This document shows positions 9,509 through 42,065 of a DNA stretch of 64,000 nucleotides, in pieces. The position numbers were made by a program, and so were the translations under genes. The first letter of the stretch is position 1; every line of letters begins with the position of its first letter. Under the pieces are notes generated by a model. It was not told the origin of the DNA. It worked only from the letters and a program-made list of their open reading frames with translations, and made no database searches. Origin of the DNA: Candidatus Aenigmatarchaeota archaeon (GTDB lineage Archaea; Aenigmatarchaeota; Aenigmatarchaeia; PWEA01). The stretch spans positions 2,165-66,164 of the forward strand of contig JBKHHD010000005.1 in the NCBI GenBank assembly GCA_046539325.1. Reading direction: 5' to 3'.

Positions 9509-9519
9509 GGTTAACACAA

Positions 9520-11036: not shown

Positions 11037-11053
11037 ATAATCACGGTGTATTT

Positions 11054-11911: not shown

Positions 11912-11949
11912 AGAAAGCTTTATGTGGAGCGATAGTTAAAAGGTTTTCT

Positions 11950-12600: not shown

Positions 12601-12623
12601 GGTTTGAGAATAAAGCTGTGCTT

Positions 12624-18506: not shown

Positions 18507-19358
18507 TTATTCAATTACCTCGTCGGGTACTTGACATGTTTCCTCGTTTCCTGTAGAAGTCCACTGACATTCCAAACCAGAACAACAGTCTTCATCATTG
18601 TCGCATACTTCATCTGCATCTGCACATACTTTTGTAAAGTTCGCTGTGATAGACATATCCTGGAAAACGGTGAGTGTACAGGGATTCGCAAATTGCCCGT
18701 CTTCACAGTGTGTACCATCTCCTTTCCATTGGTTAAAACCGTAATCATCATCCTCGGCTTCAGCTTCAATGGTCACCTCTTCGCCTGTTTGAGGATACTT
18801 ATGCTCACCGGGTTCAGGAATTGTTGTCCCAACTCCTCCTGTTTCCACAGTTATGTCTAGGATATATGGTTCCTGAAAAGACACCTTAACACTTCTATTC
18901 GTAGACATCGTGACATTGCATTCGTTCCCTTCTGATTCATCACAACCAAGAAGTGCACCCATTATATAATCTTCATTTGGGTAAGCTGTTAGTTCTACCT
19001 TCGTGTCTTCCTCATATTCGTACTTCCCGTTTACTCGTTCTCCCTCGGGGTCTAGGCTTGTATCCCCACCCTCTTCTGGGTAGGGCGTTATGTTTAGATA
19101 CTTGTAATTCTCACTTTCACCATTTTCTTCATTGTCTCCTTCGTTACCCTCGTCTCCACCGTCATTGTCTCCTGTTCCATCCTCACTGCCGCCTCCTAAA
19201 TCGAGACTTGAATCCTCGTCGAACAATTTCTCCTGCGTTTCATTAATCGGCGAAGTGTCAAAACTTGTCCTGAAGAAAGCAATGAGTCCAAGCATGACAA
19301 TACTTAACAGCACTATAGTCACAACAGGTTTTATACCGAAGGATCCTTTGTCTTTCAT
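18507..19358 (-). CDS. Class III signal peptide (pilin-like) secreted protein, acidic with Cys-rich C-terminus
   Basis: MKDKG|SFGIKPVVTIVLLSIVMLGLIAFF N-terminus (ATG 19358, GGAG 8 nt upstream). Gly/Asp/Glu-rich linker and a C-terminal domain with about 10 Cys. Confidence 0.6.
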   Translation of the reverse strand: MKDKGSFGIKPVVTIVLLSIVMLGLIAFFRTSFDTSPINETQEKLFDEDSSLDLGGGSEDGTGDNDGGDEGNEGDNEENGESENYKYLNITPYPEEGGDTSLDPEGERVNGKYEYEEDTKVELTAYPNEDYIMGALLGCDESEGNECNVTMSTNRSVKVSFQEPYILDITVETGGVGTTIPEPGEHKYPQTGEEVTIEAEAEDDDYGFNQWKGDGTHCEDGQFANPCTLTVFQDMSITANFTKVCADADEVCDNDEDCCSGLECQWTSTGNEETCQVPDEVIE

Positions 19359-19438
19359 ACACAACTCCTTATATTATACCTACTTGTTAGTTTTTTAATA
19401 GTTTGTTATAAGAACGCTTTGATAATTCTATAGGCTCT

Positions 19439-19792
19439 TTAGTAATTTTCGCAAGGTCTACAAGCCACTTCAATACATACATCGGAATACTGGCCACAAT
19501 CTCTTTCGTGTGTACAACCATCCTGGGTTTTGGGACACGTACTTTCTGTTATATTCCAACTACTGCATACATCCTCACAGTTTATATTATCGCCTCCATT
19601 TCCATCATTTTCTTCACCACCTCCTTCCCCGTCTTCATCTCCGTTTGTCAGGTTGCTTTCAATTTCTTTGAAGGGTGAATTATCCCAGCCATCTAGTAAA
19701 AGGGTTGCTGCTGCTGCTAGGACTATTATCATAATAATTAAACCAAGGAGGCTGCTTATAGTAAATTCAAAACCTTTACTTGAAGAGATCAT
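19439..19792 (-). CDS. Class III signal peptide (pilin-like) small Cys-rich protein
   Basis: MISSSKG|FEFTISSLLGLIIMIIVLAAAATLLL. C-terminal 8 Cys. Confidence 0.55.
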   Translation of the reverse strand: MISSSKGFEFTISSLLGLIIMIIVLAAAATLLLDGWDNSPFKEIESNLTNGDEDGEGGGEENDGNGGDNINCEDVCSSWNITESTCPKTQDGCTHERDCGQYSDVCIEVACRPCENY

Positions 19793-20054
19793 TGTGCCTG
19801 TCTGTTTGGATTTCCTGTCTTCTGATCAATTTTCCATGCGGGGTTATCTGATGAATATCATAATGGGTAGGTGAAATGGATAGCTCAGGTAAAAGATCTT
19901 CAGCATCGCTTGCAGTTTCGTTTACTGCTTCTTCTTTCCAGGCAGAGGTGAAAAGTGCGACGATGGCCAGGAGCACTATTATAGCCAGTGTCAGGACAAC
20001 CACAGCCTTAATAGGCATCGATACTCCTTTTGAAAGTTCAGTATTTTTCTTCAT
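19776..20054 (-). CDS. Class III signal peptide (pilin-like) small protein
   Basis: ATG 20054 gives MKKNTELSKG|VSMPIKAVVVLTLAIIVLLAIVALF. The ATG overlaps the upstream gene's stop as ATGA. Confidence 0.55.
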   Translation of the reverse strand: MKKNTELSKGVSMPIKAVVVLTLAIIVLLAIVALFTSAWKEEAVNETASDAEDLLPELSISPTHYDIHQITPHGKLIRRQEIQTDRHNDLFK

Positions 20055-20338
20055 GTTGGTCCTGTCCCTCCACGGCAACAGATTGCATCTATTTCGCCCC
20101 AATCATCATTCCATTCTTGTTCCTCAATTTCGGTGCATCTATCCGGACCGTTTGTACAACATCCAATTTCCTCGTATTCCTGACAAATAGTTCCTCTGTC
20201 TCCAGTTTCATTCAAATCACCGAGCATACCTTCCGCCGGTTCCATAGCTCCTCCCAAGACTACCGCAAGGACTATGATTGCTAGTATTAAGCCTGGGAGT
20301 GCAGTTTTCCAGCTCAAACCCTTTTTTCTCATCATCAT
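20051..20338 (-). CDS. Class III signal peptide (pilin-like) small Cys-rich protein
   Basis: MMMRKKG|LSWKTALPGLILAIIVLAVVLGG. C-terminal 7 Cys. Confidence 0.55.
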   Translation of the reverse strand: MMMRKKGLSWKTALPGLILAIIVLAVVLGGAMEPAEGMLGDLNETGDRGTICQEYEEIGCCTNGPDRCTEIEEQEWNDDWGEIDAICCRGGTGPT

Positions 20339-20366
20339 AAAGTTACCTCTTCTAATTTAAAATCCT

Positions 20367-20630
20367 TTATGTCATAGTCTCGTCGCAGCAAAATTCAAAG
20401 GGATCCTCTTCTCTTTCCCAGCCCAGTTGATCTTGTTGACATCTCTCTAAGTCTGGTTCCTGGCAGCAGCCCCTCCTTACATACTCTATGCAGTCATTAG
20501 CTCCCTCATGGACGTCGTTCGTCTCATCTCCTCCAAGGGAAAGTGCTAAAAGCAGCACAACAATTACAGCTGAAATCAGAACTAACCCACGTTTCGAGAT
20601 CTTTACCTTTGTACCAGGTATCTTGGGCAT
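20367..20630 (-). CDS. Class III signal peptide (pilin-like) small Cys-rich protein
   Basis: Start at ATG 20630 gives MPKIPGTKVKISKRG|LVLISAVIVVLLLALSLGG; the longer ORF to 20720 is likely an over-call. C-terminal CC..C..CC pattern. Confidence 0.5.
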   Translation of the reverse strand: MPKIPGTKVKISKRGLVLISAVIVVLLLALSLGGDETNDVHEGANDCIEYVRRGCCQEPDLERCQQDQLGWEREEDPFEFCCDETMT

Positions 20631-20667
20631 GGTTAGACAATGGCCCTTATAGTTTAAAACTTTTTGC

Positions 20668-20832
20668 TTAGAAAGGGACGAGGGCATCGAGAAAGTCGAG
20701 CAAACCGTCGATGTTTGCACTTATCGCACCTGTTATTCCTTCAGCAATGATAAACATCACTAGTAAGGCGAGGACCACGTAAACAACTAATTCCATGGCC
20801 TTAATTCCTTTTTTACCTGAAAACCAGTCCAT
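20668..20832 (-). CDS. Mini-pilin: 54 aa class III signal peptide protein (absent from the ORF track, below 60 aa)
   Basis: Hand translation gives MDWFSGKKG|IKAMELVVYVVLALLVMFIIAEGITGAISANIDGLLDFLDALVPF with a TAA stop. It sits directly downstream of a conserved promoter motif (20855-20884). Confidence 0.55.
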   Translation of the reverse strand: MDWFSGKKGIKAMELVVYVVLALLVMFIIAEGITGAISANIDGLLDFLDALVPF

Positions 20833-20956: not shown

Positions 20957-23161
20957 CTACGTAATAATTCTACATTCAGCACCTCCACATCTTCCCCCGC
21001 CACCGTCATCGTTATCATCTCCATCATCAGAGCCTTCAAGATATTCTGTAACACAAACCTCTCCGCCGTCTTCATCCCCACTCCCTTTGTCGCCTCTATG
21101 CCCGTCGATATCGTCGAGTATGTCACCATTTGCTTCCCAGCCACCACCTTGACCGTCTTGGTCCCAACTCCCGGAGGATACACCATCACCACCATCACCA
21201 CCACATTCATAATGATTAGAATTATCATACGGACAGTCTCCGTTCCCATCATCACCCTCATATTCTGGAGAGCCTGACCATCCACCATCACCGCCTCTTG
21301 CTCCTCCTCCACCACCATATTCAAAAATTGTGGCCTTATGGCCCGCACCACCACCACCGCCGGCTGCAGCTAAAAACTCTTCACTCCCATCATCGTACTT
21401 TAACCATAGTTCGGTTGATCCTCCACCTCCACCTGCTTCACTTCCTCCGTAACCACGATTTCCCCCATCTCCACCGTCGGGTTTTCCATAACCACCACTT
21501 TCCTTGTATCGCTGGCTGCCTGCATTTCCAATAGATATATTAAGGTTTACTTCTTCGTCTATAGTGAATGCACCTTGCACGTAGCCCCCTTCACCACAAT
21601 CTCCATCTTTGCCTGGGTCTCCACCGTCGGCACCATAAACCTCTATCTCGTAGTTCCCGGGGTCGAGTTCCAATGCATCATCACCTACATAGTCGTAACA
21701 TTCTGTGTTCACGCTTAGTTCGGTGAATTCAGCTGTTATCTCTTTGTCTCCGTCCATTTCAACAGTCAGTTCTTCACTTCCATTTCTTTCGTCGCCTGTC
21801 CATTTATCCAGACTCCAATCAGGAATATCCGGGTGTGCTTTGAGGGTTATTTCCTCGCCTTCTGGTACGTAGGTTATTCCAGGAGAAGGGACTGTGTAAC
21901 CTCCTTTTGGATTTTTTACATCTATTTTGAGGACCTTCAATTCTACATCCGTATAGTTCCTCCCACTGTTGAAGGTCCAGGTGTGCTCGAAGTCCCATCC
22001 ATATTCTAGGCCCTCCGTCCTTGTATCTGTGTAAGTGGTCTTACTTTCCATGACTTCTGTTTTCTTCGGTGTTCCAGCTCCTCCATGTGGATCCTTAGTG
22101 ATGCCTGCTGTATCGTAGTTCCAGAAAGAGTTTCCTACAACGGAATCACTGTTACTGTATCCTATAAGTCCATTGATATCATTCCCGCCAGTTACTTGAC
22201 CCGTTGAATATGCATTGTATACTATTCCTGATGCTGACGTGTATCCTACCAGTCCACCTACACACCACCCATTGCCATTGACATGTCCTGTAGAATATGA
22301 ATCTAATACTATCCCACTATTACTTCCCACGAGGCCTCCTGTGTTGTTTTTTTCTCCAGAAATATTACCAGAGGAGTACGATTTAAAAATATCTCCACTG
22401 TTGTATCCTACTAGTCCACCTACGTTACTATGTCCATCAATGGTTGCCGAAGATGAAGAACTTGAAATTTTTCCATCGTTGTATGCTACTAGTCCCCCGG
22501 CCCTTAGGAATGAGTCTTCATCTGAAGCCGTATTTTTGGTAATTATTTTGCCTCTGACCCTTGAATTTAATATATCTCCCCAGTTGACACCTATCAATGC
22601 AGCGACTCTGTCCTCTCCACGGATACTTACATTTACTAGTTCTAAGTTTTTGATTTCTGATGAATCATTGGTATGAGCGAAAAGTGCCGCGTCTTGACTA
22701 GACCTATCTATGTGTAAATCCGTTATTTTATGCCCTTGTCCGTGTAATTCCCCCTTAAATTGGTGGTCAGGCCAGTCGCCTATTGGTTCAAACCCATCGC
22801 CATTGTTCCACTCCTTTGTTCCACTGCAGTCTATGTCGTTTTCGAGATAGTAATTTCCTCCTAGGTCCTCGTTTATATTCTGAAGTTCTTGACAGCTTTC
22901 TATTGCTGTGGCATCATCTGGCGGATCTCCGGTCCTGTCCTTTGGGTGTATGTTCTGCCATTGAAGTATAGGATACTTTGTTCTGTGCTCTACTAGGTCC
23001 TCACTCCGTCTTTCACCAGTATCCGTTAGGTCACTGGAACCTTCTTGTAGCATGTCGCCTAGCTCTGTGAAAATAACACCAACTACCAGAAGTGCTATTA
23101 CGGCTCCTACTACTAGTCCAAGGGTGAATTCAACTCCAGAACGGCCGAGGAACATTGACAT
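20957..23161 (-). CDS. Large class III signal peptide surface protein with GLUG-type repeats and Gly/Asp-rich C-terminal tail
   Basis: N-terminus MSMFLGRSG|VEFTLGLVVGAVIALLVVGVIF. Central repeats (GGLVGYNSGDI, TGGLVGSNSGIV, VGGLVGYTSASGIV, INGLIGYSNSD) followed by SFWNYDTAGI, as in the GLUG motif family. Last ~200 aa are low-complexity G/D/E (GGGGGAGHK..., GGDGGDG...). Confidence 0.6.
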   Translation of the reverse strand: MSMFLGRSGVEFTLGLVVGAVIALLVVGVIFTELGDMLQEGSSDLTDTGERRSEDLVEHRTKYPILQWQNIHPKDRTGDPPDDATAIESCQELQNINEDLGGNYYLENDIDCSGTKEWNNGDGFEPIGDWPDHQFKGELHGQGHKITDLHIDRSSQDAALFAHTNDSSEIKNLELVNVSIRGEDRVAALIGVNWGDILNSRVRGKIITKNTASDEDSFLRAGGLVAYNDGKISSSSSSATIDGHSNVGGLVGYNSGDIFKSYSSGNISGEKNNTGGLVGSNSGIVLDSYSTGHVNGNGWCVGGLVGYTSASGIVYNAYSTGQVTGGNDINGLIGYSNSDSVVGNSFWNYDTAGITKDPHGGAGTPKKTEVMESKTTYTDTRTEGLEYGWDFEHTWTFNSGRNYTDVELKVLKIDVKNPKGGYTVPSPGITYVPEGEEITLKAHPDIPDWSLDKWTGDERNGSEELTVEMDGDKEITAEFTELSVNTECYDYVGDDALELDPGNYEIEVYGADGGDPGKDGDCGEGGYVQGAFTIDEEVNLNISIGNAGSQRYKESGGYGKPDGGDGGNRGYGGSEAGGGGGSTELWLKYDDGSEEFLAAAGGGGGAGHKATIFEYGGGGGARGGDGGWSGSPEYEGDDGNGDCPYDNSNHYECGGDGGDGVSSGSWDQDGQGGGWEANGDILDDIDGHRGDKGSGDEDGGEVCVTEYLEGSDDGDDNDDGGGGRCGGAECRIIT

Positions 23162-23247
23162 GGAAACTCCTATGTACTAATTGATTGTCTTGATTTTAAA
23201 GTTTTAGTAAGCTTTCTCCTAGATCTTGGTGCGGTTTTCTCCTTTAA

Positions 23248-23276
23248 TTTTAAGTCTAAAGTTAAATCATTGCATG
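23248..23276 (-). promoter_or_regulatory. Conserved promoter/regulatory motif, copy 2 (minus-strand sense CATGCAATGATTTAACTTTAGACTTAAAA)
   Basis: Matches the 20855-20884 element at about 26 of 29 positions. Lies ~90 nt upstream of ATG 23161, with GGAG 7 nt before the ATG. Confidence 0.5.
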
Positions 23277-23320
23277 GTCAACTATTCGGAGAAACTATGC
23301 TCCCAAAAAACTCTCCTTTG

Positions 23321-24415
23321 CTAAGGATCATCCTGACAAACACATCTATCATGCATCCCTGACACACTTTTACAGTCCTTCCACTCGTACTCGCCTTTTG
23401 TTGCTCCTGTTTTTATACACTTATAATCTTGGTCACATTCGTCACCAGAATCGGAGCCATCGCCACATCCATCACCGCTCTCATCCACCGATTCACAGGC
23501 CATTACTTCGCCCTCACAACACATCTTCTGGTTACCATCCCACGTTGCACCTGAGTCCTTGCACTCATCACCAACTTCGCATTCGTCTTCGTCACACCCA
23601 TCCTCATCATCCTCGTCACCATTATCTCTTGAATAAGATGAGGGTTGAATAGTTTGTGAAGAGCTGTATTCGTCCTTGATCAATACCTTTGGTTTTTGCA
23701 TATTACCTTTTAGATCAACGGAGTAGGAAATATCATATACCTCGACATTGCATTTTACTTTTGTCATAGCATAGCCACTTTTTGTATCGCCCCATGAATT
23801 GATACAATTGTCTGCATTATCGTCTGGTTCCCATTTACGCCTGTCGGAAGAAACATCTTCTTGATAACAGGGATTTTCTGATTGTTGAACCACTTCCTTG
23901 TATCCCCTGCACTGACAGTACTGGTCTACATCATCCCAGGAACCTGTCATGCTCGAGCCACATTCGCCCCAGCCTGTAAAATCCCGGGCATTAACGTCTA
24001 CAGGGAAGTCAACCACCACAGGTTCTAAAGACTTCTCCACATGCAAATAGTTAACACTGAGGCTCATATACTGCTGAGGGTCCTCTCCGTCACCGGTCAT
24101 TTCTGTACCGTTTAGGCTGTCTAAATAGCTCTTAATTTTTTCCTCTATGTCGTCAATTCCAGGTTCACCATCTTCCTCCGAATAGGCTTCTCTTGTTCCA
24201 AGCCACACTGCATCATCGACGAGATCTCTTGAACTATCATACCTCAACTTCGCGTTTATGGTTTCTGATTGCTCCAGGCCTATTCGACCTGCACCAGTAG
24301 ATCCAGTAACCAGCACTGTAAATGCCACCGCCAGTCCTCCCCCTACGATTACTGCACTGACTACTCCAACCACTAATAAGCTTATAGCTCCACTTTCGGA
24401 TGACATTTTTGACAT
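23321..24415 (-). CDS. Class III signal peptide (pilin-like) protein with acidic, Cys-rich extracellular region
   Basis: ATG 24415 gives MSKMSSESG|AISLLVVGVVSAVIVGGGLAVAFTVLV. More than 25 Cys in CxC/CC clusters in the C-terminal half; many D/E. Confidence 0.55.
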   Translation of the reverse strand: MSKMSSESGAISLLVVGVVSAVIVGGGLAVAFTVLVTGSTGAGRIGLEQSETINAKLRYDSSRDLVDDAVWLGTREAYSEEDGEPGIDDIEEKIKSYLDSLNGTEMTGDGEDPQQYMSLSVNYLHVEKSLEPVVVDFPVDVNARDFTGWGECGSSMTGSWDDVDQYCQCRGYKEVVQQSENPCYQEDVSSDRRKWEPDDNADNCINSWGDTKSGYAMTKVKCNVEVYDISYSVDLKGNMQKPKVLIKDEYSSSQTIQPSSYSRDNGDEDDEDGCDEDECEVGDECKDSGATWDGNQKMCCEGEVMACESVDESGDGCGDGSDSGDECDQDYKCIKTGATKGEYEWKDCKSVSGMHDRCVCQDDP

Positions 24416-24468
24416 TTTATCAATCCTTGTTTTATTTACTGTAAATTCTATCTGACTTGTTAATTTAT

Positions 24469-24936
24469 TCAACCGCCTGCATTTTTATCGACAAGTATTG
24501 CCCTACCAAGCTTCTCATTTCCTAATAGGATGGTTCTTGAGGCCACTTCTTTTCTTGGATCATCCGGTCTTCCATGGATATATGTATTGCCTTGGTATTC
24601 AAAACGAATATAATAGTTGTCACCATTCTCCCCCTGAAATTTATTCTCCAAATCTTCTATTTCATCGTCTATGTCATCATTACGGCCGTTGTAGGTGTAG
24701 ATATAATCTATAAACTTCCTGCGGACTGATTCGCCGTTATCGTCCTCCGTTCTCAGGAAGGCACTAAGTACTATTTCATCTGTATGTCTATCGATCTCTT
24801 CAACTTCGATCTCGACATCCCTCTTTAGTTCAACAAAGTAGTTTATCGTGAAAAGTACGAGAAAAAACATAGCAGTGAATATAAGTGTGGCTATGAGTAT
24901 CGTGAACTGCCCTTTTTTGTTTTCTCTATTTATCAT
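24469..24936 (-). CDS. Class III signal peptide (pilin-like) protein
   Basis: MINRENKKG|QFTILIATLIFTAMFFLVLFTI. Confidence 0.55.
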   Translation of the reverse strand: MINRENKKGQFTILIATLIFTAMFFLVLFTINYFVELKRDVEIEVEEIDRHTDEIVLSAFLRTEDDNGESVRRKFIDYIYTYNGRNDDIDDEIEDLENKFQGENGDNYYIRFEYQGNTYIHGRPDDPRKEVASRTILLGNEKLGRAILVDKNAGG

Positions 24937-24946
24937 GTTTCATCTC

Positions 24947-25924
24947 CTAAACCTTTTTCCAGTAAGCTTCTGTGCTTGATCCAGAGTGGACATCACTTAC
25001 ACATTCATACATATCTGCACACTCATTTCCAACGTATTCGAGGTCGCACTTCTCTACTGTCCCGTTGTCGCAACATATCTCTAACTCTTCTCCCCGGGTA
25101 TCATATACCTCAGTGTGATAGAGATCAATATCCTCAAGAATGGTCCGAGAGTAGGTACAGGGTTCTTCACCTGCTTCTACAAAATAACTGGTTTCATCAC
25201 CCTTTTTTACTGCTGAAGTTTCAACATTTTCGTCGAATTCCATCTCTGGTACCTTCAGATTGTAGTCTTTGAATATATAGGTTGCCTTTCCCTTGTCGTC
25301 TATCCTGGCATCTATTTTTAACCTATCACCTGTTTTTCCTTTATCAGACTGGATAGTATGATTTTTATCGAACATAGTTTCCAATTTGAGAGGCTCGCCA
25401 TCTTCATACCAGGCTATCTTCCCTGTCCTGGTAGTAGAGGGTCCGAAATGTGGTGGATGTACCATGTAAAAAGTTGCGGTCCCGAGATTGTTTCCAGATC
25501 CCGTGTCTATAGTCACAGGCACATCCCACTCTGTGATATCTCCTACGACAATATCGCTGAGATCATTACCAAAGCTGTAGTCTTTGTTTTTTTCATGGTC
25601 TTCGACCTCTACGTAAGTCCAGACTGTTGGGTGGTGTGCACAGTCGAGAGCCTCGGTCCCGTCCTTTCTGTTGAGTTTAGCTTCGGAAAGAACTGCCATT
25701 TCGCCTGTCGAGAGGCAATCGGGCGAGGAAAGGATTTCGGCCATTACACTGTTGGCCTGAACCTTGCCCATACTGAAGGAGTACCCTTCAACAGCTATGT
25801 CTGTGGGTGCTATAATGAAATAGTAAAATACAAATACAAAACCTACCAATACTATAGTGTATAGAAGATACCAGATGAAGTCTCCTCCTGAAAGCCCTTT
25901 CACTCTTTCTTTAAAATTCAGCAT
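24947..25924 (-). CDS. Class III signal peptide (pilin-like) protein
   Basis: MLNFKERVKG|LSGGDFIWYLLYTIVLVGFVFVFYYFII. C-terminal Cys cluster. 14-nt overlap with the upstream gene. Confidence 0.5.
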   Translation of the reverse strand: MLNFKERVKGLSGGDFIWYLLYTIVLVGFVFVFYYFIIAPTDIAVEGYSFSMGKVQANSVMAEILSSPDCLSTGEMAVLSEAKLNRKDGTEALDCAHHPTVWTYVEVEDHEKNKDYSFGNDLSDIVVGDITEWDVPVTIDTGSGNNLGTATFYMVHPPHFGPSTTRTGKIAWYEDGEPLKLETMFDKNHTIQSDKGKTGDRLKIDARIDDKGKATYIFKDYNLKVPEMEFDENVETSAVKKGDETSYFVEAGEEPCTYSRTILEDIDLYHTEVYDTRGEELEICCDNGTVEKCDLEYVGNECADMYECVSDVHSGSSTEAYWKKV

Positions 25925-27353
25925 AATCCTCTACCACCTTATTGAGCTCACCGTCTTTTATCTCGATAACACTTCCACATTTTATGGTTCGTTCTGGCAT
26001 GTACCACGTATCTTCAAAGTCCCAGCCTCTGCTTTCAGAAAAGGTTTCTTTACTTGTCATTTCTGCCATGAAAAGGGGCTCTCCTGCGCCACTGTCCTGG
26101 TCCAGGGATATTCCTGCTGTGGCCATGTTCCAGAAAGAGCTTTCAACAGTAGCCTCACTTGAACCTATCAGTCCACCAAATTCTGCTGATCCTTCTGAAG
26201 GATTGACAGTTCCAGCTGAATAAGAGTTATTAATGGGATTTGATGATGAAGCCTGATGGCCTACTAATCCCCCTATTTTAAGCGTACGTAGATCCGCTTC
26301 GATATGAATGTTTGATGTGCTGTAAGAGTTAGAAATACCTCCATCGAGATGTGTTACACCTACAAGTCCCCCGACTCTATCTCCTTCGGCTTTAACCATA
26401 CCCGCCGAGAATGATTCTGAGATATCTCCATGTGAAAATGAACCTGCTAGGCCACCGACCTTTTCTTCCCCTTTGACATAGGCCTTGCTATAGGATTTGC
26501 TTATATCTGAGGTTTTCTGCGAACTAGATCCAACTAGTCCGCCTACAGAACTACTTCCTTGTACTGAACCGGTGGTGTGTGATTTTTTTATATCTGAGAA
26601 ATAAGCATTTCCGACTAATCCACCAACTGTATTTCCACCCTTGATTTTTACATCTTCAACACCGATGTTTCTTATTTCGCCCTCGGAAACGTACCCAAAC
26701 AAGCCAACATTATCTTCATTTGCTCTGTCAATATATAAGCCGCTTATTGTATGTCCTTGGCCGTCGAACTCCCCCATGAAGTAATTATGGTTTTTCTGTT
26801 CTCCTATCGGCTCCCAACCCTGTCCTCCGTTAGCGTCTCTTCCTGCGACCTCTTCATAACCGGGGGTATCCGAATCCAGATTATTCTTCAGGACGTAATT
26901 TTTATTTAAGTCATTTCTTATATCATCCAGATCATTCCAGTTTCTTATAGGGACGGAGTCTTCATGTTCACCTTCTATTTCTTCGTTGTTCTTTTCCCAA
27001 CGATGTTTTGGAAAGGACGGCCCCTTATGGAAGTTCCAGTAGGTTTTAGTGGTTAAATTATCTTCGTCTTCAACATCCAGTCTCGAACGTACAGCATCCT
27101 TTGTAAAGGTGATCTCACAGTCTGAAGTAAGCAAGGTTCTCTTTTCGATAGTAGTTTCTTCAGGAAAAGCCGAAGTGATCGTCATGTCGCTCGCGAGCTC
27201 TACGTTCTGATGCTGTATTTGGTTCTCTGCGCCCAATGAAATGAGCTCTGTTACCATATCCCCGCCGACAACCATCACCAGTAGCATTAGAATTACTATA
27301 ACAACGAGGCCGAGGGACTTTCCAATAGCGACTCCTTTCGTCCATGGGGACAT
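25911..27353 (-). CDS. Class III signal peptide surface protein with GLUG-type repeats
   Basis: MSPWTKG|VAIGKSLGLVVIVILMLLVMVVGG. Repeats VGGLVGNAYFSDI, VGGLVGSSSQ, VGGLAGSFSHGDI, VGGLVGVTHLDGGI, IGGLVGHQASS, FGGLIGSSEA, then SFWNMATAGIS. Paralog of the 20957-23161 product. Confidence 0.6.
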   Translation of the reverse strand: MSPWTKGVAIGKSLGLVVIVILMLLVMVVGGDMVTELISLGAENQIQHQNVELASDMTITSAFPEETTIEKRTLLTSDCEITFTKDAVRSRLDVEDEDNLTTKTYWNFHKGPSFPKHRWEKNNEEIEGEHEDSVPIRNWNDLDDIRNDLNKNYVLKNNLDSDTPGYEEVAGRDANGGQGWEPIGEQKNHNYFMGEFDGQGHTISGLYIDRANEDNVGLFGYVSEGEIRNIGVEDVKIKGGNTVGGLVGNAYFSDIKKSHTTGSVQGSSSVGGLVGSSSQKTSDISKSYSKAYVKGEEKVGGLAGSFSHGDISESFSAGMVKAEGDRVGGLVGVTHLDGGISNSYSTSNIHIEADLRTLKIGGLVGHQASSSNPINNSYSAGTVNPSEGSAEFGGLIGSSEATVESSFWNMATAGISLDQDSGAGEPLFMAEMTSKETFSESRGWDFEDTWYMPERTIKCGSVIEIKDGELNKVVEDYAEF

Positions 27354-27399: not shown

Positions 27400-27798
27400 T
27401 CAGTTCTCCGGAACGCTTGGGTTAAGTGTATACTGGCATGCAATATATTCGTTACCTTTTTTGCACATCCCATAATAGTTACTTTCTTCATCTAGAACTC
27501 CTTTCCAGCCCTCGGGACAGAAACAGTCTGAGTCTTCTACAGCGTTATATTCGTTGTTAGGCGTTCTCACTGCATCCACGCACGTTACGTTCCATTCATC
27601 GTCCTCTTTTGTGCTATTAGGTCTACAGTTTCCATCTCTGATACAGGCAGCAGGGTTATCATTATGCTGTTCACAGCCTATGTCCATATCGGAGAAATTC
27701 ATCGCAAGAAGGACTATTACCACGAGTGCCAGACTTAGCTTTATCATTAGGAAAAGTATTTCTTCCATTGACTTTGAAGTTCCTTTATTAGAGATCAT
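27400..27798 (-). CDS. Class III signal peptide (pilin-like) Cys-rich protein
   Basis: MISNKG|TSKSMEEILFLMIKLSLALVVIVLLAMNF. 10 Cys in the C-terminal domain. Confidence 0.5.
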   Translation of the reverse strand: MISNKGTSKSMEEILFLMIKLSLALVVIVLLAMNFSDMDIGCEQHNDNPAACIRDGNCRPNSTKEDDEWNVTCVDAVRTPNNEYNAVEDSDCFCPEGWKGVLDEESNYYGMCKKGNEYIACQYTLNPSVPEN

Positions 27799-27947: not shown

Positions 27948-28094
27948 TTATATTCCCCTAATTCTATGTATCAGTAGATCTGATATATTTCCCAAAGAGC
28001 CTTCTGCAGTTAGAATTAAAGCCGTGGCAATCGCGAGAATTATAAGTGCCCCTATCAGAAACAATATCGTACTGCTGAATCCCTTTCTTTTCAT
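27948..28094 (-). CDS. Mini-pilin: 48 aa class III signal peptide protein
   Basis: ATG 28094 gives MKRKG|FSSTILFLIGALIILAIATALILTAEGSLGNISDLLIHRIRGI. The longer ORF call to 28145 would overlap the next mini-pilin. Confidence 0.5.
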   Translation of the reverse strand: MKRKGFSSTILFLIGALIILAIATALILTAEGSLGNISDLLIHRIRGI

Positions 28095-28102
28095 CCTTTC
28101 AC

Positions 28103-28276
28103 CTAGATCAGATTGCCTAAAAACTGCATCATGTTTCCTATCCATCCTTCACCGGAGCCGATTATATCAGTCCCAATTAAAAAGAGCATTCCAACGAGTA
28201 TTACAACTGCTATTATTGCAACGAGCACTTCTAAAGACATCTTCCCCTTTTTAAGAAATCTAGCTTTGTTCAGCAT
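28103..28276 (-). CDS. Mini-pilin: 57 aa class III signal peptide protein (not in ORF track)
   Basis: Hand translation gives MLNKARFLKKG|KMSLEVLVAIIAVVILVGMLFLIGTDIIGSGEGWIGNMMQFLGNLI with a TAG stop at 28103-28105. Confidence 0.5.
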   Translation of the reverse strand: MLNKARFLKKGKMSLEVLVAIIAVVILVGMLFLIGTDIIGSGEGWIGNMMQFLGNLI

Positions 28277-28319: not shown

Positions 28320-29435
28320 TCAACTGCCTTCTGATTGGTATTCCTCGTCTACCTCCCAGTAATATTCTTTCTCTGCTAAACAAAGGCACCATGCTTCACC
28401 AGCTTCTTCTTCGCAGAACTCTTCTTCGGAGTCAATCTTCTCATAGCCCCTTGGAGCGTCCTTTTGTTCGAAACAACCCGAGGACCAGATTATTTCATCT
28501 TTGGCGCTGCACTGGTCTGCACAGGCGGCGTCAAGTTCTGTGCCTCCCTCTCTTGAATCCCTTTCCTTTGAACTGCAGACTACAGGAGCATAGAGTTCAA
28601 AGGGATGGGTACCTTCCCAGTATCTCCGTAGTAACATGAGTTGGAATCTCCTCTTTGAGTTGGGGATTTTTATATCAACGCCTTTACCTATAGCGAAGTC
28701 AGAAACCGGATCGCCATCTATCTGAATATCATCTCCTGAGTCCGAGGCCATCCACCTCACATCGCCCATTTCACTAAGAGTGCTACCCTCCTTGTTCCAG
28801 AGAACTGTCCCTTCTTCAAAGTTCCATAGAGCACACCTACCGCTTTCGAAAGTAGAAAAAATTACGCAGCCTTCGTGACTGTCTAGATTACTTAGACTGT
28901 TTACCTCATTTTGACCTACTTCATCCAGTGCGTCTTTACATGCTCCTTTTGTTTCGCCACCAGAGCTGTGTGTATATATCATATCTCCTTCGCTGTCAAT
29001 AAGTTCATACTCCAGGTGTTTTCCAGGATGTTGATCTGTTAAGTGGAACTCACCGAGATTGTCGTCGTTTCCATCCCTTACATAGGAGTGTATGTATTTT
29101 CCTTGTCTATCGGATACACCACAGTAGCAGCCTGCAGATTCTACGTCTATGGCGAAATCTGCTATCCTTTCCTGGGCGATGGTATCCGTCCCTACAGGAT
29201 TGCCCCACTTTCCTCGGGATACCCCACTTACAAGACCTTCCCAGACCCTGTCCTTCAAGAAGCTGTGTCCTTCGATGCTTGCCTGTATATCACAGTATGT
29301 CGGGCATACAACGTCCTTACCAATAATCTGATTTCCTACACGGCCTATTATTTTTCCTCCCAGAGAACCTGTTATAATTATTATGATGATAACGAAAACT
29401 ATGATCAGCATTGCACCAGACATGCCTTTTTTCAT
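28320..29435 (-). CDS. Class III signal peptide protein, member 1 of a tandem Cys-rich paralog triplet
   Basis: ATG 29435 gives MKKG|MSGAMLIIVFVIIIIIITGSLGG. Shares GCYCGVSDRQGKYIH, EFHLTDQHPGKHLEY, YAPVVCSS and C-terminal CLCLAEKEYYWEVDEEY with the next two genes. Confidence 0.6.
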   Translation of the reverse strand: MKKGMSGAMLIIVFVIIIIIITGSLGGKIIGRVGNQIIGKDVVCPTYCDIQASIEGHSFLKDRVWEGLVSGVSRGKWGNPVGTDTIAQERIADFAIDVESAGCYCGVSDRQGKYIHSYVRDGNDDNLGEFHLTDQHPGKHLEYELIDSEGDMIYTHSSGGETKGACKDALDEVGQNEVNSLSNLDSHEGCVIFSTFESGRCALWNFEEGTVLWNKEGSTLSEMGDVRWMASDSGDDIQIDGDPVSDFAIGKGVDIKIPNSKRRFQLMLLRRYWEGTHPFELYAPVVCSSKERDSREGGTELDAACADQCSAKDEIIWSSGCFEQKDAPRGYEKIDSEEEFCEEEAGEAWCLCLAEKEYYWEVDEEYQSEGS

Positions 29436-29540: not shown

Positions 29541-30896
29541 TTATACAGGTGTACATGAACATTTCACACTACTACAATCCTCACCTAAATTCGCAGTTAC
29601 CTCTTCATTACAGTCCTTGTCATATGTATAACAACTATTTTCTGCGCTATTCCAACCGCTACCAACAGCGTTCGCGGGGTCCGTTCCTCCGTATGCACCT
29701 CCTGAAACTTCGCAGTGCTCACCACCGCAGGTAACACCTTCTAGCTCCTCCTCACACCATTCTTCGCAGGAGTCTATTTGTTCTTTACCTGTGGAATAAC
29801 AATCTCCTTCACTTTCCCCGCCATTCTCCACTTCTGGTTCGTATTCTTCATCCACCTCCCAATAATATCTTTTTTCGGCTTTGCAGCTACAGTATGGATC
29901 TTCCTCGCTTGCCTTCTCTTGTCTATTTGTTCGAGCCTGTGTTTCAGGACATAAATCCTCTGATTTCCTGTACTCTTCTGGAAGTAGATCGTAATTTTCT
30001 ACCGGGGTTTCGCTGCAGGTCGAACCCCAGAAGATTTCCTCCTCGTCGTTGCAGTAGTCCCTACATGCTTTATCGACCATGGAGTCCGCTTCCTCTTCGT
30101 TTCTTCCATCTGACTTGCAGACCACTGGTGCCGCAAACCGAAATTCAGTACTTTCCTCGGACACGTTTTGAAGCAGCATTCTCTGTGAGCTGTGGCCTCC
30201 TGAAAATGAAACGCTGTCGCCTATTTCAATATCTTCGACGGGACCATCAAAGTCATCACCATATCTCTCGTAGCCTTGTAATGTATCTTCTATACTTCCT
30301 TCACTGTTGTTGAGAACCGATCCTTCTCCGGCCTTCCATACTGCACAATTGTAATTGCCGTCGTTGTCTTTTTGAACAGAAACTATTAAGCACGCTTCCG
30401 CGTCCTGTATCCCACTGAAACCACCTAGATCTTCTTTGTCCTCTTCCTCTATAATTTCCTCGCATGCGTCAAACCCTCCAGTGTGGTCAAAGCCCGTTGC
30501 CTTGTATTTAAGATGCATCGCAGGATTTTGTTTTGTAAGGTGGAATTCATATATATTCTCAGGACCCCCGGCTGTATGAACATGCATGTACTTCCCATTC
30601 CTCTGATCAACGCCACAGTAACACCCGGCTGCCGCAGGCTTTGCCATACCCGCTCTAGCCTTGTCTATTATTATATCGGACCAGCTTACGCTTCCTCCTA
30701 GCCATGAAGGCCACCATGCCCACCTGCTGTAATCCTCCGCTTCGTGGTGTATGTTGCAATAAATGTCACATCCGTATGTATTCATAAAAATTGGTTCGAC
30801 CATCATCCAGAAAATATCAAGTATTACAGTTACGCCTAAAAGTGCCAGGATTATAACTACTAAAACCATCGCACCGATACCTTTTTTATTTGACAT
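29541..30896 (-). CDS. Class III signal peptide protein, member 2 of the paralog triplet (extra Cys-rich C-terminal extension)
   Basis: MSNKKG|IGAMVLVVIILALLGVTVILD. Motifs GCYCGVDQRNGKYMHVH, EFHLTKQNPAMHLKY, FAAPVVCKS, CSCKAEKRYYWEVDEEYEPE. Confidence 0.6.
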   Translation of the reverse strand: MSNKKGIGAMVLVVIILALLGVTVILDIFWMMVEPIFMNTYGCDIYCNIHHEAEDYSRWAWWPSWLGGSVSWSDIIIDKARAGMAKPAAAGCYCGVDQRNGKYMHVHTAGGPENIYEFHLTKQNPAMHLKYKATGFDHTGGFDACEEIIEEEDKEDLGGFSGIQDAEACLIVSVQKDNDGNYNCAVWKAGEGSVLNNSEGSIEDTLQGYERYGDDFDGPVEDIEIGDSVSFSGGHSSQRMLLQNVSEESTEFRFAAPVVCKSDGRNEEEADSMVDKACRDYCNDEEEIFWGSTCSETPVENYDLLPEEYRKSEDLCPETQARTNRQEKASEEDPYCSCKAEKRYYWEVDEEYEPEVENGGESEGDCYSTGKEQIDSCEEWCEEELEGVTCGGEHCEVSGGAYGGTDPANAVGSGWNSAENSCYTYDKDCNEEVTANLGEDCSSVKCSCTPV

Positions 30897-30901: not shown

Positions 30902-31108
30902 TCAGAATGCTATACCGAATTTATCCGTGACGAAATAAACTATTACAAATACTATCAATACCAGTATTAATATCGCTATGGCGGATAAGATCGAACTTTC
31001 GCTTGCTTCCTGCAAAAATACACACCAAATAACGTTTTCGAACGGAGTTAAATATATTTTGTCCTTGCCTTTGCCTCGTCTACTCGTCTTTAGGTTCGTA
31101 CTCTTCAT
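30902..31108 (-). CDS. Possible small C-terminally anchored membrane protein (uncertain start)
   Basis: The ORF in this gap ends ...SSILSAIAILILVLIVFVIVYFVTDKFGIAF. The upstream part of the 140 aa call overlaps the next gene out of frame, so only the 3' portion is proposed. Confidence 0.2.
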   Translation of the reverse strand: MKSTNLKTSRRGKGKDKIYLTPFENVIWCVFLQEASESSILSAIAILILVLIVFVIVYFVTDKFGIAF

Positions 31109-32171
31109 CCACCTGCCAGTAGTATTCTTTTTCGACAACGCACTGGCAGTAGGGGCTTTCGAATTCATCGGGACAGAAATCCTCTTCCTTTGTATATTTT
31201 TCCGGGAGTTCGTCGTAGTCTCTGAGGGCTGTATCGCTACATTTGGACTGCCAGAAACCCATATCTTCCTCGCTGCAGTATTCAGCACAGGCCTTGTCGA
31301 ACTCTGTCTCAGGATCCTGTTCAACGGATTCGGATTTGCAGACTACAGGAGCATATAAATCAAAGGGGCGTTCTCCTTCCCAGTATTGACGGAGCAGTAT
31401 CTTCTGGAAGGCAGGTTTATCACCTTTTACCTCTACTTGTTGGCCTATTTCCAGTTGAAGTGGGTTATTGTCAGTGCCGGACGTCAAACGTCTACTGTTG
31501 GGCTTTAAATGGATCATTGAACTAAGAGATTCCCCTTCTTTGTTCCACAGAGCTGAGCCTTCTTGTGCGCCATATATAGTGCAGCTCTCACTGCCATCCT
31601 TCATGGAAACTATTACACAGCCTTCGTATTCTCCTAGGTCTTCAAGTCCTGTGAACTCGTCACTGTCTTCCATTTCATCTTTACAGTTCTCCAGGCCATC
31701 CGTTTGCCTGTTTCCGTCTGCGTGGTCGAACTCGGCTGCGGCTTTTTTATTTGCATAGTACTGGAGATGCAGCTTGGGATTTTGATCAGTTATATGGAAC
31801 TCCTTCACCGTTCCGTCGTCTGCGTTTCCGTGAATATGTATATATTTACCACTCCTCTCGGAAACACCGCAGTAACATCCCATGGCTTTGGGATCTATAT
31901 TTTGCTTTAGTTTGTCCAAGGCGACTTCAAAAGTCGTTTTTCGGCCCCACCACTGGTCGTCACCTATACCTATTATATTCCAGCCACTGAGTCCTTCTAC
32001 ATCCGTCTGTATACTGCAGAATTTATTACATGCCCTGTCCATGGTGTCAAATCCGGCGAAGGCCGCAAAGATAGGCTCCATAACCCCTGCATAAAGAACT
32101 CCGCTGAGTAAAAACATCACTATGGCTATTACGAAAAGCAACATAGGCAATCCCCCCTTTTTGTTAATCAT
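31080..32171 (-). CDS. Class III signal peptide protein, member 3 of the paralog triplet
   Basis: MINKKGG|LPMLLFVIAIVMFLLSGVLYAG. Motifs GCYCGVSERSGKYIHIH, EFHITDQNPKLHLQY, YAPVVCKS, CQCVVEKEYYWQVDEEYEPKDE. Confidence 0.6.
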   Translation of the reverse strand: MINKKGGLPMLLFVIAIVMFLLSGVLYAGVMEPIFAAFAGFDTMDRACNKFCSIQTDVEGLSGWNIIGIGDDQWWGRKTTFEVALDKLKQNIDPKAMGCYCGVSERSGKYIHIHGNADDGTVKEFHITDQNPKLHLQYYANKKAAAEFDHADGNRQTDGLENCKDEMEDSDEFTGLEDLGEYEGCVIVSMKDGSESCTIYGAQEGSALWNKEGESLSSMIHLKPNSRRLTSGTDNNPLQLEIGQQVEVKGDKPAFQKILLRQYWEGERPFDLYAPVVCKSESVEQDPETEFDKACAEYCSEEDMGFWQSKCSDTALRDYDELPEKYTKEEDFCPDEFESPYCQCVVEKEYYWQVDEEYEPKDE

Positions 32172-32213: not shown

Positions 32214-34313
32214 TCACAGTCCTTCACCCAGAAGTCCAGCTATCTGTGTACCGAAGACCTCCCAGACAACTACAAGTGAAAAGGAGTAAACGATTACCCC
32301 GATGAGTATCATAAATCCTGCAGCCTTCCTCTTAGCTACCTTGTCGCCCGGTCCGTTCTCCACACCTGCAGTAAGCATCGCCAGTAGGTAGGAGGTCTGT
32401 ATAACGTAAATTCCTACAACGATCTGAAGTATGTATAAGGGCATCATTTCACCCGCGGCTCCCCATCCGCCGACAAGCATACCGTCCATGCCTATTCCCG
32501 CCATGCCTCCTATCCCTACATCACCTTCGGTTGCCTGGCCCAATCCCTCCATCGCTTCTCCTATGCCCCGGAATATAGACATCATTATCGCGGCCATCGC
32601 GACCGAGACACCTGCTACGAACGGGCCAAGGAAGGAACCTAGAAACTGCATGGAAGTTGTCTCCGAAGAAAGCATATTTTTGAGGTCTCCCTCTATTTCG
32701 TCCAACTGTTCGAGATACTTGGATATGGAGATGGCCGATCTTGAAGCTATTCTCGATCCTTTTTCCGTGGCATCGACGACTATCTTCATGACTGAGGTCA
32801 CAAGGTCCGATGGATATTGCCATACAGCACCGAAGTTCTTATCAAAGAATGCGTTTCTAAGGTCCATTCCCCCTTTCCTCATATTTTTAACAACCTTTCT
32901 GAACATGTTAGATATCTCCAGGTCTTCGTTTCTCTGGACTGTGTCTTCTGCGGCTCTCTCTATGGGCTTCCCGAGGTCCATTCTGTTGCCGAGAGAAAAC
33001 AACGCCTTCGAAAACTCGTCCTCTATGTTCTTTATACTCTCCCGTAGCTCGATCTTTGCCCTCGTATCCAGAAGAAAGTAGCTGGATGGTCCGATCGCGA
33101 TACCTCCGGTGATAACTAGCGAGGTCACTATCTGTCTGAAGAGGTCCTCACCTGCATGGAATTTCACCAAGTAGATCCCTAGAAGTATTACAGGAAGGGA
33201 TAGAATAAGGGATATGGGCCATATTTTGATGGTTTTATCTCCCAGTTTCATCATTCCCGAAGGGATATGGTCTGGATGTTTTGATATATCAGGCGTCGAA
33301 AATCCCATTGGCCTGTACTCCAAAGTCCTTTTACCTGTCAGGTATATTATCAGCGGGAGAATTATGTTGTACCCGATAAAGAGGAAAGCTGGCCTTACAG
33401 TATCCTCTAGCATGAGTATTATTATGGGAAACATAACCAGTACCATGATAGGAAGCATTATACCGAGCATATGTATGATCATAATAGGCAGTTCCAGCTT
33501 GTTGGAGTATTCCTTCATCATCTCCCTCGAACCGGACATCATCGTGTTTATACCTTCGTCAAGCATAGCCTTCCTCTTCTCCTTCGACTGTTCCATGGAG
33601 TTCTGGATAACCTGCATGGCCTCAACGAAGGGTTTGTTGTCCTGCCATTTCTCCAGGTAGTCGGACAACGCTTCTTTCATGGATATATATTTTCCTGTCT
33701 CGACATCCCAGAGCATCTTCTTGAAGTCGAGGGAAAGGGGTTCTCCGAGGTGCTCTGCAGTGAACTTTATAGCTCCTTCAAGGTTTGGCGATGTTCGCAT
33801 ATATATGACCATATATATTATGGCCAGCATTATCTGATCAGCAGCTTTAACTCGGAAAAGACGTGCTTGGGAGTTCGGATATTCAGCCAGCAGGTAGATT
33901 GCAACGGCCCCGAGCATGAATATCAGGAGACCGAAAACTATAGAAGCTATTCCGAAGGCCATCAGGATTATGCCTGCCAAGAAGATCATAAGCCCAGAAA
34001 GAACAGCCAAGGAATAGGCTCCCGGGGGCGTTATCTGCATGTATGCCATATCTATTGATCGCTGCAGCTCCTCCTTTTTGTCTTCAGATGGTTCAATCAC
34101 AACTATGTCTTCGGCTATGTTGCAGAGCTTTTCGTACAGCGACTTCTCTCTGTGTTTTTCCTCTTCTTTGATGAAGGTGTTGTACTCCCTGGATGTAAAG
34201 GTCCTATTTTCCTCACCGGGTAGCTTCAAATCCTTTTTTCCTTCCTCAACTATGTTGTCTATCTCTTTCTCCCATTCATCCTCGAAATTGTCCTCAGGCA
34301 TTCTTGAATTCAC
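32214..34313 (-). CDS. Polytopic membrane platform protein of a type IV pilus/archaellum-like system (FlaJ/TadC/GspF family)
   Basis: 699 aa with two blocks of multiple TM helices separated by cytoplasmic domains, the size and architecture of FlaJ/TadBC fusions. Immediately downstream of, and overlapping, the FlaI-like ATPase gene. Confidence 0.6.
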   Translation of the reverse strand: MNSRMPEDNFEDEWEKEIDNIVEEGKKDLKLPGEENRTFTSREYNTFIKEEEKHREKSLYEKLCNIAEDIVVIEPSEDKKEELQRSIDMAYMQITPPGAYSLAVLSGLMIFLAGIILMAFGIASIVFGLLIFMLGAVAIYLLAEYPNSQARLFRVKAADQIMLAIIYMVIYMRTSPNLEGAIKFTAEHLGEPLSLDFKKMLWDVETGKYISMKEALSDYLEKWQDNKPFVEAMQVIQNSMEQSKEKRKAMLDEGINTMMSGSREMMKEYSNKLELPIMIIHMLGIMLPIMVLVMFPIIILMLEDTVRPAFLFIGYNIILPLIIYLTGKRTLEYRPMGFSTPDISKHPDHIPSGMMKLGDKTIKIWPISLILSLPVILLGIYLVKFHAGEDLFRQIVTSLVITGGIAIGPSSYFLLDTRAKIELRESIKNIEDEFSKALFSLGNRMDLGKPIERAAEDTVQRNEDLEISNMFRKVVKNMRKGGMDLRNAFFDKNFGAVWQYPSDLVTSVMKIVVDATEKGSRIASRSAISISKYLEQLDEIEGDLKNMLSSETTSMQFLGSFLGPFVAGVSVAMAAIMMSIFRGIGEAMEGLGQATEGDVGIGGMAGIGMDGMLVGGWGAAGEMMPLYILQIVVGIYVIQTSYLLAMLTAGVENGPGDKVAKRKAAGFMILIGVIVYSFSLVVVWEVFGTQIAGLLGEGL

Positions 34314-38563: not shown

Positions 38564-38568
38564 CTATA

Positions 38569-39111: not shown

Positions 39112-39127
39112 GATTTCACCTTTTTAG

Positions 39128-39625: not shown

Positions 39626-39674
39626 CCTACCACTTTACATTTTACAGGTTACTTATTTAAAGTTTGAGCTATTT

Positions 39675-40163: not shown

Positions 40164-40176
40164 TTCTTATCCCTCG

Positions 40177-42062: not shown

Positions 42063-42065
42063 GGT

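Follow-up and report, generated by a model that had tools for sequence, protein, structure and literature searches.

GLUG beta-helices on putative pilin-like subunits encoded in a type IV filament locus of an Aenigmatarchaeota archaeon

Introduction

Bacterial modular type IV pilins, such as PilB and PilC of Streptococcus sanguinis, join a class III-type N-terminus and a pilin carrier to a bulky module for display on the filament. More than 1,200 such proteins in 264 architectures have been catalogued, and six of them have the architecture IPR012902-IPR011493, in which the prepilin motif IPR012902 is joined to IPR011493, an entry that the authors call 'M26' (Raynaud et al. 2021, PMC8179133). 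Here, we analyzed a 64,000-nucleotide stretch of DNA from a Candidatus Aenigmatarchaeota archaeon (assembly GCA_046539325.1, contig JBKHHD010000005.1, positions 2,165 to 66,164; hereafter the window), in which two large proteins, A and B, carry arrays of GLUG repeats behind putative class III signal peptides and lie within a cluster of type IV filament genes. We consider it fairly probable that A and B are modular, class III-processed, pilin-like (minor) subunits of the filament machine encoded by the same cluster and that they display adhesion modules.

Several described systems resemble A and B in part. Archaeal class III signal peptide (SPIII) proteins, for instance the sugar-binding proteins of the Sulfolobales bindosome, likewise start with a short charged leader and a hydrophobic helix, behind which a large functional domain follows. 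A preprint on SPIII 'binding proteins' surveyed archaea widely and described large domains and long beta-helical examples; it does not mention GLUG (bioRxiv 10.64898/2026.04.22.720090). Large secreted proteins, PilY1-like or adhesin-like, are encoded by archaeal type IV pilus loci, and it has been inferred that they act as tip adhesins or minor pilins; the families described there are DUF2341 and Ig folds, and GLUG proteins and Aenigmatarchaeota are not covered (Makarova et al. 2016, PMC4858521). Lastly, a right-handed beta-helix of GLUG repeats is found in the N-terminal domain of the IgA1 metalloprotease ZmpA and in BACOVA_03286 (6xja, 6xjb, 7uvk, 3n6z). We take IPR011493, one half of the bacterial combination named above, to be the GLUG entry.

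Results

GLUG repeats and the predicted fold of A and B

A preliminary description of this DNA had reported two open reading frames (ORFs) with six to eight GLUG-type repeats followed by SFWNxxTAGI. We found both ORFs with the lengths and N-termini given there, on the minus strand (Table 1), and the presence of the repeats in A and B is confirmed. The start codons are backed by N-termini that are kept in orthologs. Entries in NCBI from Ca. Aenigmatarchaeota are identical (100%) to both proteins, where A is named 'GLUG motif-containing protein' and B 'hypothetical protein'. The Pfam model Glug (PF07581; gathering cutoff 20.5 bits) scored 48.7 bits in A (6.2e-13) and 39.2 bits in B (6.3e-10), so that the Pfam check proposed in the preliminary description came out as foreseen. 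A motif scan for GG[LI][VAI][GA] located repeat cores at residues 222, 248, 275, and 302 of A and at residues 244, 271, 300, 328, 361, and 393 of B. With a repeat hidden Markov model (HMM), we counted six units in A (four strong and two degenerate, residues 189-353) and seven in B (six strong and one degenerate, residues 217-416), each with a period of ∼27 residues; since the model was seeded with the strong units of A and B, it detects independently only the degenerate ones. The arrays are followed by the caps SFWNYDTAGI at residue 345 of A and SFWNMATAGI at residue 406 of B, and the family consensus of GLUG homologs includes an SFW-D/N-x-x-T-S/A-G cap. Nor do the repeats align only to themselves, since the Glug domain is common to thousands of database homologs of A and B.

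The beta-helix anticipated for these repeats was predicted with confidence. AlphaFold2 (AF2) models built with 46-sequence alignments place a helix at residues 9-46 of A and 9-55 of B and a beta-helix at residues ∼80-380 of A and ∼130-410 of B, both beta-helices having a pLDDT >90. Two further strands are modeled in B (residues 87-95 and 102-110), with low confidence past residue 39 of its N-terminal region. Confidence is also low for A past residue 380, for the linkers between helix and beta-helix in both proteins, and for the C-terminal strand of B. When compared with the PDB by Foldseek, A matched 3n6z (E 2.3e-8, TMt 0.61) as well as 6xja and 6xjb (rmsd 3-4 Å across ∼300 columns), and for B the matches were 3n6z (E 8.5e-8, TMt 0.63) along with the N-terminal domain of IgA1 protease. 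The significant PDB matches, with E values of 1e-8 to 1e-4 for the ZmpA and BACOVA_03286 structures (3n6z, 6xja, 6xjb, and 7uvk), were solely to 3n6z, a Bacteroides ovatus 'putative IgA1 protease', and to the N-terminal beta-helix of streptococcal and Gemella IgA1 proteases. A phmmer search of PDB sequences also matched residues 217-366 of B to IgA1 protease (E 6.5e-5).

We searched both proteins for protease features. A motif search found no HExxH in A or B, and a Pfam scan found neither Peptidase_M26_C nor any other catalytic domain in them. A has a sub-threshold Peptidase_M26_N match (25.8 bits versus a cutoff of 27.7), and the NCBIfam ZmpA model reached 19 bits against a cutoff of 3000. 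Because the HExxH motif and the catalytic domains are missing, the models indicate that A and B hold the non-catalytic module of IgA1 proteases and not the protease itself. The reading of A and B as M26 proteases was rejected on these grounds.

The beta-helices could still be tethered enzymes of another type, such as glycan- or envelope-degrading modules that breach a host surface, rather than filament adhesins. The fold is common to polysaccharide lyases and phage tailspikes, although the corresponding Foldseek matches are weak (E 0.008-1, TM <0.3), and archaeal class III proteins other than filament pilins are known, the bindosome being one example. However, all significant structure and sequence matches lead to the non-catalytic GLUG/IgA1-protease N-terminal domain, the catalytic signatures are missing as described above, and the Pfam scan found no ABC transporter, solute-binding-protein, or substrate-binding-protein domain in A, B, or the locus. 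We regard tethered enzymes as an improbable explanation.

Pilin-like N-termini and their conservation

Both proteins begin with a short charged leader that ends in Gly and is followed by ∼22-25 hydrophobic residues. To call an N-terminus pilin-like we used a rule of our own, rather than FlaFind or SignalP, that asks for [KR][GAS] within the first residues and then for an uncharged hydrophobic 18-mer. A (MFLGRSG/VEFTLGLVVGAVIALLVVGVIF; the slash marks the putative cleavage site here and below) and B (SPWTKG/VAIGKSLGLVVIVILMLLVMVV) show this combination of leader and helix. In B, the site K-G/V has its charge at position -2, and neither K6 nor G7 varies among four orthologs. The motif LGRSG[AV][DE]F[AT]LG is kept in the A orthologs of the related loci L001 and L004. 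Processing sites described for archaeal class III signal peptides include RA/Q, KG/Q, DA/V, and RA/V (PMC4371748).

We then compared the N-termini with the beta-helices. A and its orthologs are 72-75% identical over residues 1-80 and 20-55% identical over the beta-helix, while B and its L001 ortholog are 75-88% identical over the N-terminal part and 18-52% identical over the beta-helix. The best-kept segment among the orthologs of both proteins is thus the N-terminal 80 to 120 residues. Conservation of this kind, with the N-terminus above the beta-helix, is expected of a pilin, in which the assembly helix is conserved and the exposed part varies, and it is unlike that of a passive anchor.

A beta-helix inserted into a small pilin

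When residues 1-125 of B were searched against 1.8 billion representatives, only its orthologs and one other protein, P0238 (129 aa, E 4.3e-6), were found. P0238 occupies exactly the position of B in the fully syntenic locus of L006-L008 (NCBI GCA_003555465.1), a more distant relative, whose locus also encodes a 756-aa ATPase, a 695-aa platform protein, three Cys-rich paralogs, and tiny pilins. P0238 has no GLUG repeats. It is homologous to B over residues 1-96 and has the same invariant K-G site, and its Cys pair 77/114 corresponds to Cys residues 79/459 of B. A match to the final 20 residues of P0238 (PELEVNCGVVSYVKFEDGKI) is found at the very C-terminal end of B and of the B orthologs P0122 and P0123 (PERTIKCG-SVIEIKDGEL), with a score that was reached by 1, 25, and 5 of 500 shuffles for B, P0122, and P0123, respectively. 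Since this syntenic protein without GLUG keeps the K-G site, the Cys pair, and the C-terminal strand, comparison of the sequences indicates that B is a small locus pilin with a beta-helix of ∼330 residues inserted just before its last Cys-containing strand.

The relatives also differ in which modules they carry. For B and its counterparts the sizes are 129 aa versus 431-519 aa. The counterpart of A in L008 is a 328-aa protein that has the N-terminal helix and the GLUG beta-helix only (36% identity, E 1e-48), the L001 ortholog of 642 aa has gained a domain of InlB B-repeats, and A itself, at 734 aa, has further gained a glycine-rich domain. This last domain matches ALK_LTK_GRD, a family named for the ectodomain of the animal ALK/LTK receptors; it occurs in A of the window only and is missing from the L001 and L008 orthologs. 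A phmmer search of the glycine-rich C-terminus against PDB sequences gave no match. A pilin module that exists without the added module is therefore recognizable for B, as P0238, and in part for A, of which the helix is conserved.

The filament locus and its prepilin peptidase

A and B belong to a run of 19 minus-strand genes between 36561 and 18507, which are spaced by -20 to 183 nt. The run opens with genes for an ATPase (T2SSE-type) and a platform protein (T2SSF-type), and 17 more genes follow. Our pilin-like rule was passed by 15 of these 17, and the other two share the design but for a variant residue. Outside the run, only two real genes of the 64 kb passed the rule, further matches being antisense ORFs. 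B, the three pilin-like genes behind it, and A form a five-gene block whose order is kept in L001, L004, and L006-L008; in L001 and L004 it reads B ortholog, ∼310 aa, ∼160-230 aa, ∼430-490 aa, and A ortholog.

No prepilin peptidase was found within the window, where ∼45 ORFs were examined by Pfam and all unannotated ORFs were checked for multi-transmembrane (multi-TM) topology. A Peptidase_A24 protein (PF01478; 351 aa, 44.7 bits versus a cutoff of 26.5) with a GGGDAK motif is encoded at 19286..20341 of L005. This Logan contig is 100% identical to positions 52707-64000 of the window (11,294 bp), and the gene lies ∼8 kb beyond the right end of the window. Since the two overlap without a mismatch, the genome has the enzyme that processing of class III signal peptides requires.

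Table 1. Features of A, B, and the filament locus. Coordinates are window positions; aa, amino acids.
Feature	Coordinates	Strand	Size or residues	Description
Protein A	20957..23161	-	734 aa	Pilin-like N-terminus, GLUG beta-helix, InlB-B-repeat-like region, and Gly-rich (ALK_LTK_GRD) domain, in this order
A N-terminus	23063..23161	-	residues 1-33	Putative class III signal peptide and hydrophobic alpha1: MSMFLGRSG/VEFTLGLVVGAVIALLVVGVIFTEL; rule scan, AF2 helix 9-46
A GLUG beta-helix	22022..22924	-	residues 80-380	Six units and cap SFWNYDTAGI; AF2, Foldseek, repeat HMM
A glycine-rich domain	21110..21673	-	residues 497-684	Pfam ALK_LTK_GRD, 49.8 bits versus cutoff 24.5, 6.1e-13
Protein B	25911..27353	-	480 aa	Putative pilin module split by inserted GLUG beta-helix; orthologs P0122, P0123
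B N-terminus	26988..27353	-	residues 1-122	Putative class III signal peptide (MSPWTKG/VAIGKSLGLVV...), long helix, small beta region; N-part of pilin module, contains Cys79
B inserted GLUG beta-helix	26019..26966	-	residues 130-445	Seven units and cap SFWNMATAGI; pLDDT 90-98
B C-terminal strand of pilin module	25914..26000	-	residues 452-480	PERTIKCGSVIEIKDGEL; contains Cys459; best local match of the last 30 residues of P0238
Secretion/assembly ATPase	34294..36561	-	755 aa	Pfam T2SSE 1.9e-13; NCBIfam FlaI/TadA-like below equivalog cutoffs
TadC/FlaJ-like membrane platform	32214..34313	-	699 aa	Pfam T2SSF, 29.6 bits versus cutoff 25.2; 69% identical to L008 counterpart
Three paralogous Cys-rich proteins	31080..32171, 29541..30896, 28320..29435	-	363, 451, ∼371 aa	KKG/hydrophobic N-termini
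Tiny Flp-like pilin candidates	28103..28276, 27948..28094	-	57, ∼48 aa	Pilin-like rule; counterparts in L008
Cys-rich pilin-like protein	27400..27798	-	132 aa	Counterpart in L008
Three pilin-like genes between B and A	23321..25924	-	325, 155, 383 aa	KG/LSGGDF.., KKG/QFTILIA.., ESG/AISLLVV.., respectively
Six small pilin-like genes downstream of A	18507..20832	-	54, ∼87, 95, ∼92, 117, 285 aa	Last with InlB B-repeat domain

Signal peptide or uncleaved anchor

Taken together, the [KR]-G/hydrophobic design across the locus, the Peptidase_A24 gene, the conserved N-termini, and the sequence homology between the N-module of B and P0238 support the class III signal peptides that the preliminary description had assigned to both proteins. 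The competing explanation is that the N-terminal segments are uncleaved signal anchors and that A and B are ordinary proteins of the surface or envelope, tethered to the membrane, which merely lie beside pilus genes. The sites themselves are non-canonical. The charge in A is at -3 (R-S-G/V), with Arg at -2 only if the cut falls after Ser, and the L008 ortholog of A has K-I-G/S. B has a Lys at +5, and one of its orthologs has Lys at +5/+6. Furthermore, the pilin and archaellin N-terminal models of Pfam and NCBIfam, at E <= 0.01 to 0.1, matched neither A nor B nor any other protein of the locus, and a profile of the B N-module compared with PDB sequences returned no solved pilin, only chance matches (E >= 0.4). 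Curated models often miss such short, divergent pilin regions (PMC4858521). A has no separate globular pilin domain, as its helix runs into the beta-helix at residue ∼80, and the split pilin in B is deduced by sequence comparison, with low AF2 confidence for the linker and the C-terminal strand. The sites, the missing model and profile matches, and these structural points weigh against A and B as filament subunits, as does the fact that host association of the organism is an assumption from its lineage.

Homologs in other genomes likewise favor anchors, as most GLUG homologs are surface proteins with Sec or lipobox targeting, and ∼230 of the 237 sampled have no pilin-like N-terminus. Among these 237 best homologs we found such an N-terminus in ∼6, the rest having Sec or lipobox signals. 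Since a loose signal-peptide rule also fires on the Sec and lipobox peptides of bacterial-type homologs (38 of 237), we assessed pilin-likeness by visual inspection and by whether a lipobox or AxA site was missing, and the only convincing cases were A, P0002, B, P0122, P0123, and P0076. Against anchors, however, stand the leader-Gly-hydrophobic design in ∼17 consecutive genes of an operon-like cluster, the unusual finding, for a passive anchor, that the N-terminal 80-120 residues are the best conserved, the homology of the B N-module to a pilin-sized protein at the same locus position, and the A24 peptidase in the genome. We therefore think it unlikely that A and B are simply anchored proteins and favor their reading as pilin-like subunits.

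GLUG proteins elsewhere and the question of transfer

Pilin-type N-termini and GLUG repeats also occur together outside this lineage. An unrelated archaeon (L002, a 429-kb contig, ENA ERZ15185023) encodes at 10001..13701 a GLUG protein of 981 aa (Pfam Glug E 1.9e-40). This protein also has CHB_HEX_C_1/Fn3_assoc domains, and its N-terminus, TKRA/LAPIITAIILIVIG, is of the canonical archaeal pilin type. The next gene encodes a 242-aa pilin-like protein, again with CHB_HEX_C_1/Fn3_assoc, and neither gene adjoins one for an ATPase or platform protein. Because this archaeon has an example of its own, the combination of a pilin-type N-terminus with GLUG arose more than once in archaea, but it is rare, as the count of ∼6 among the 237 best homologs shows.

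The GLUG modules might instead be recent bacterial imports that were fused by chance to local N-termini and have no dedicated pilus role. The top non-orthologous homologs do include many from bacteria (Omnitrophota, Hydrogenedentes, Cloacimonadota, and Dehalococcoidia). We built a neighbor-joining (NJ) tree from 73 beta-helix domains. Of its 100 bootstrap replicates, 89 grouped the orthologs of A and 97 those of B, and only 34 contained a clade of A and B together. The distances in this tree are saturated (∼0.9), however, so that it neither supports nor excludes transfer. GLUG proteins are common in archaea too, at least three related genomes for B and four for A keep the fusion, always at the same locus position, and an imported origin would be compatible with a pilus role. 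We consider chance fusion of recent imports very improbable.

Other genes of the locus and the window

The three Cys-rich paralogs of the locus have the motifs CYCGV..R.GKY.H, EFH.TDQ.P, APVVC.S, and YYW.VDEEYE in common, and a Pfam scan of the three gave no family; the trio is kept in L006-L008. Three minus-strand genes encode proteins of 48-57 aa (28103..28276, 27948..28094, and 20668..20832) that are made up of a KKG or RKG leader, then a hydrophobic helix, and lastly a short tail, and their L008 counterparts have 57, 53, and 48 aa. They resemble Flp/Tad-type pilins that lack a globular domain, and they may be the subunits that actually build the filament. A divergent InlB B-repeat (Flg_new_2) recurs on pilin-like proteins of the locus, namely on the 285-aa protein (18507..19364, minus strand) and, in L001 (3270..4736) and L004, on the orthologs of the 383-aa protein, which suggests that modules are shuffled among the locus pilins.

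Two genes outside the locus also have class III-like N-termini. One (7232..7540, plus strand) encodes a Cys-rich protein of 102 aa that begins MAAKKG/IALPINMLVILAVAVIVLL, and the other (61984..62667, minus strand) a protein of 227 aa that begins MNKG/MNTAVLLALIFAGLLLF; both are possible stand-alone pilins. Upstream of the ATPase gene, past two divergently oriented coiled-coil genes, are five tandem paralogous multi-TM proteins (38012..40731, minus strand, 162-184 aa), three of which were compared with Pfam and gave no match. Beside them are two very acidic proteins (40785..42794; 425 and 242 aa), the larger without a Pfam match. A link between these genes (38012..42794) and the pilus locus is possible. 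At 8033..11911 on the minus strand, genes for a nucleoside/AMP phosphorylase-like protein, a RuBisCO large subunit, and an IF-2B-family (ribose-1,5-bisphosphate isomerase-like) protein are adjacent, presumably the archaeal AMP-salvage arrangement that is often seen in DPANN genomes.

For 33 housekeeping proteins encoded in the window, the predicted pI has a median of 4.99 and Asp+Glu amounts to 20%, and 85% of these proteins fall below pI 5.5. Such an acidic proteome suggests a salt-in halophile and is consistent with the halophilic Aenigmatarchaeota (Haloaenigmatarchaeaceae) that have been described (PMC13195033).

Discussion

As pilin-like subunits, A and B would be made and used as follows. 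The N-terminal hydrophobic helix would put each precursor into the membrane, where the A24 prepilin peptidase of the genome would cut the leader after Gly, that is, after G9 (possibly S8) in A and after G7 in B. The ATPase/platform pair would load the helix into a filament or a short pseudopilus. In it, A and B, with the products of the three pilin-like genes between them, would probably form a tip or priming set or else a low-abundance set. The GLUG beta-helix would point outward as a non-catalytic binding module, and in a reduced, DPANN-type archaeon its target would most plausibly be a host cell or other surface. GLUG proteins of other archaea have been proposed to act in adhesion (PMC9723798). 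By analogy with these proteins and with the bacterial modular pilins, binding to a host or other surface is the likely role of A and B.

A and B differ from each of the systems that they resemble. Compared with the bacterial modular pilins, they are archaeal and have an archaeal-style leader without the G/FTLIE methylation motif, which none of 239 sampled homologs has. In B, the module appears to be inserted before the last pilin strand and not grafted at the C-terminus, and A has no recognizable globular pilin domain. The bindosome and other SPIII proteins are substrate-binding and usually accompany ABC transporters away from a filament locus, whereas the GLUG beta-helices of A and B are encoded inside a filament locus with no transporter nearby. 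Unlike ZmpA, A and B lack both the M26 catalytic domain and HExxH, and a pilin-like N-terminus takes the place of the Sec signal with cell-wall anchor. With the large proteins of other archaeal pilus loci, A and B have in common that they are large, apparently secreted, and encoded in the locus; those proteins belong to the other families named at the outset.

The architecture had at first been set down as unrecognized among archaeal pili. This holds insofar as our literature search found no paper that links GLUG to archaeal pilins. It is less unprecedented than that, as bacterial proteins that combine a prepilin with IPR011493 were reported in 2021, and archaeal class III proteins with large or beta-helical domains in the 2026 preprint. 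With A and B, the modular pilin design known in bacteria gains a new example from archaea; they do not represent a new type of machine. One instructive detail is that insertion of the module is documented by an ortholog free of it.

A more specific proposal is that the GLUG subunits are host-recognition adhesins at the tip of a halophilic Aenigmatarchaeota pilus and that gain, loss, and swapping of modules, as in B (129 versus 431-519 aa) and A (328, 642, and 734 aa), is a mechanism of host retargeting. We offer this tentatively and regard it as rather doubtful. If it were true, the insertion of modules into a minor pilin would be the first route to be documented by which adhesins evolve in the type IV filaments of archaea.

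DPANN archaea are thought to depend on attachment to a host, and pilins have repeatedly been proposed as determinants of specificity (bioRxiv 10.1101/2025.08.05.668663). For archaea of this type, the locus described here offers two structurally interpretable adhesin candidates. To our knowledge, almost no concrete adhesin candidates exist for attachment between DPANN archaea and their hosts. If A and B are the subunits that we propose, they would extend the bacterial 'modular pilin' principle to archaea, and the occurrence of the same pilus locus with and without the GLUG module in relatives would provide a natural comparison series for host attachment in halophilic Aenigmatarchaeota.

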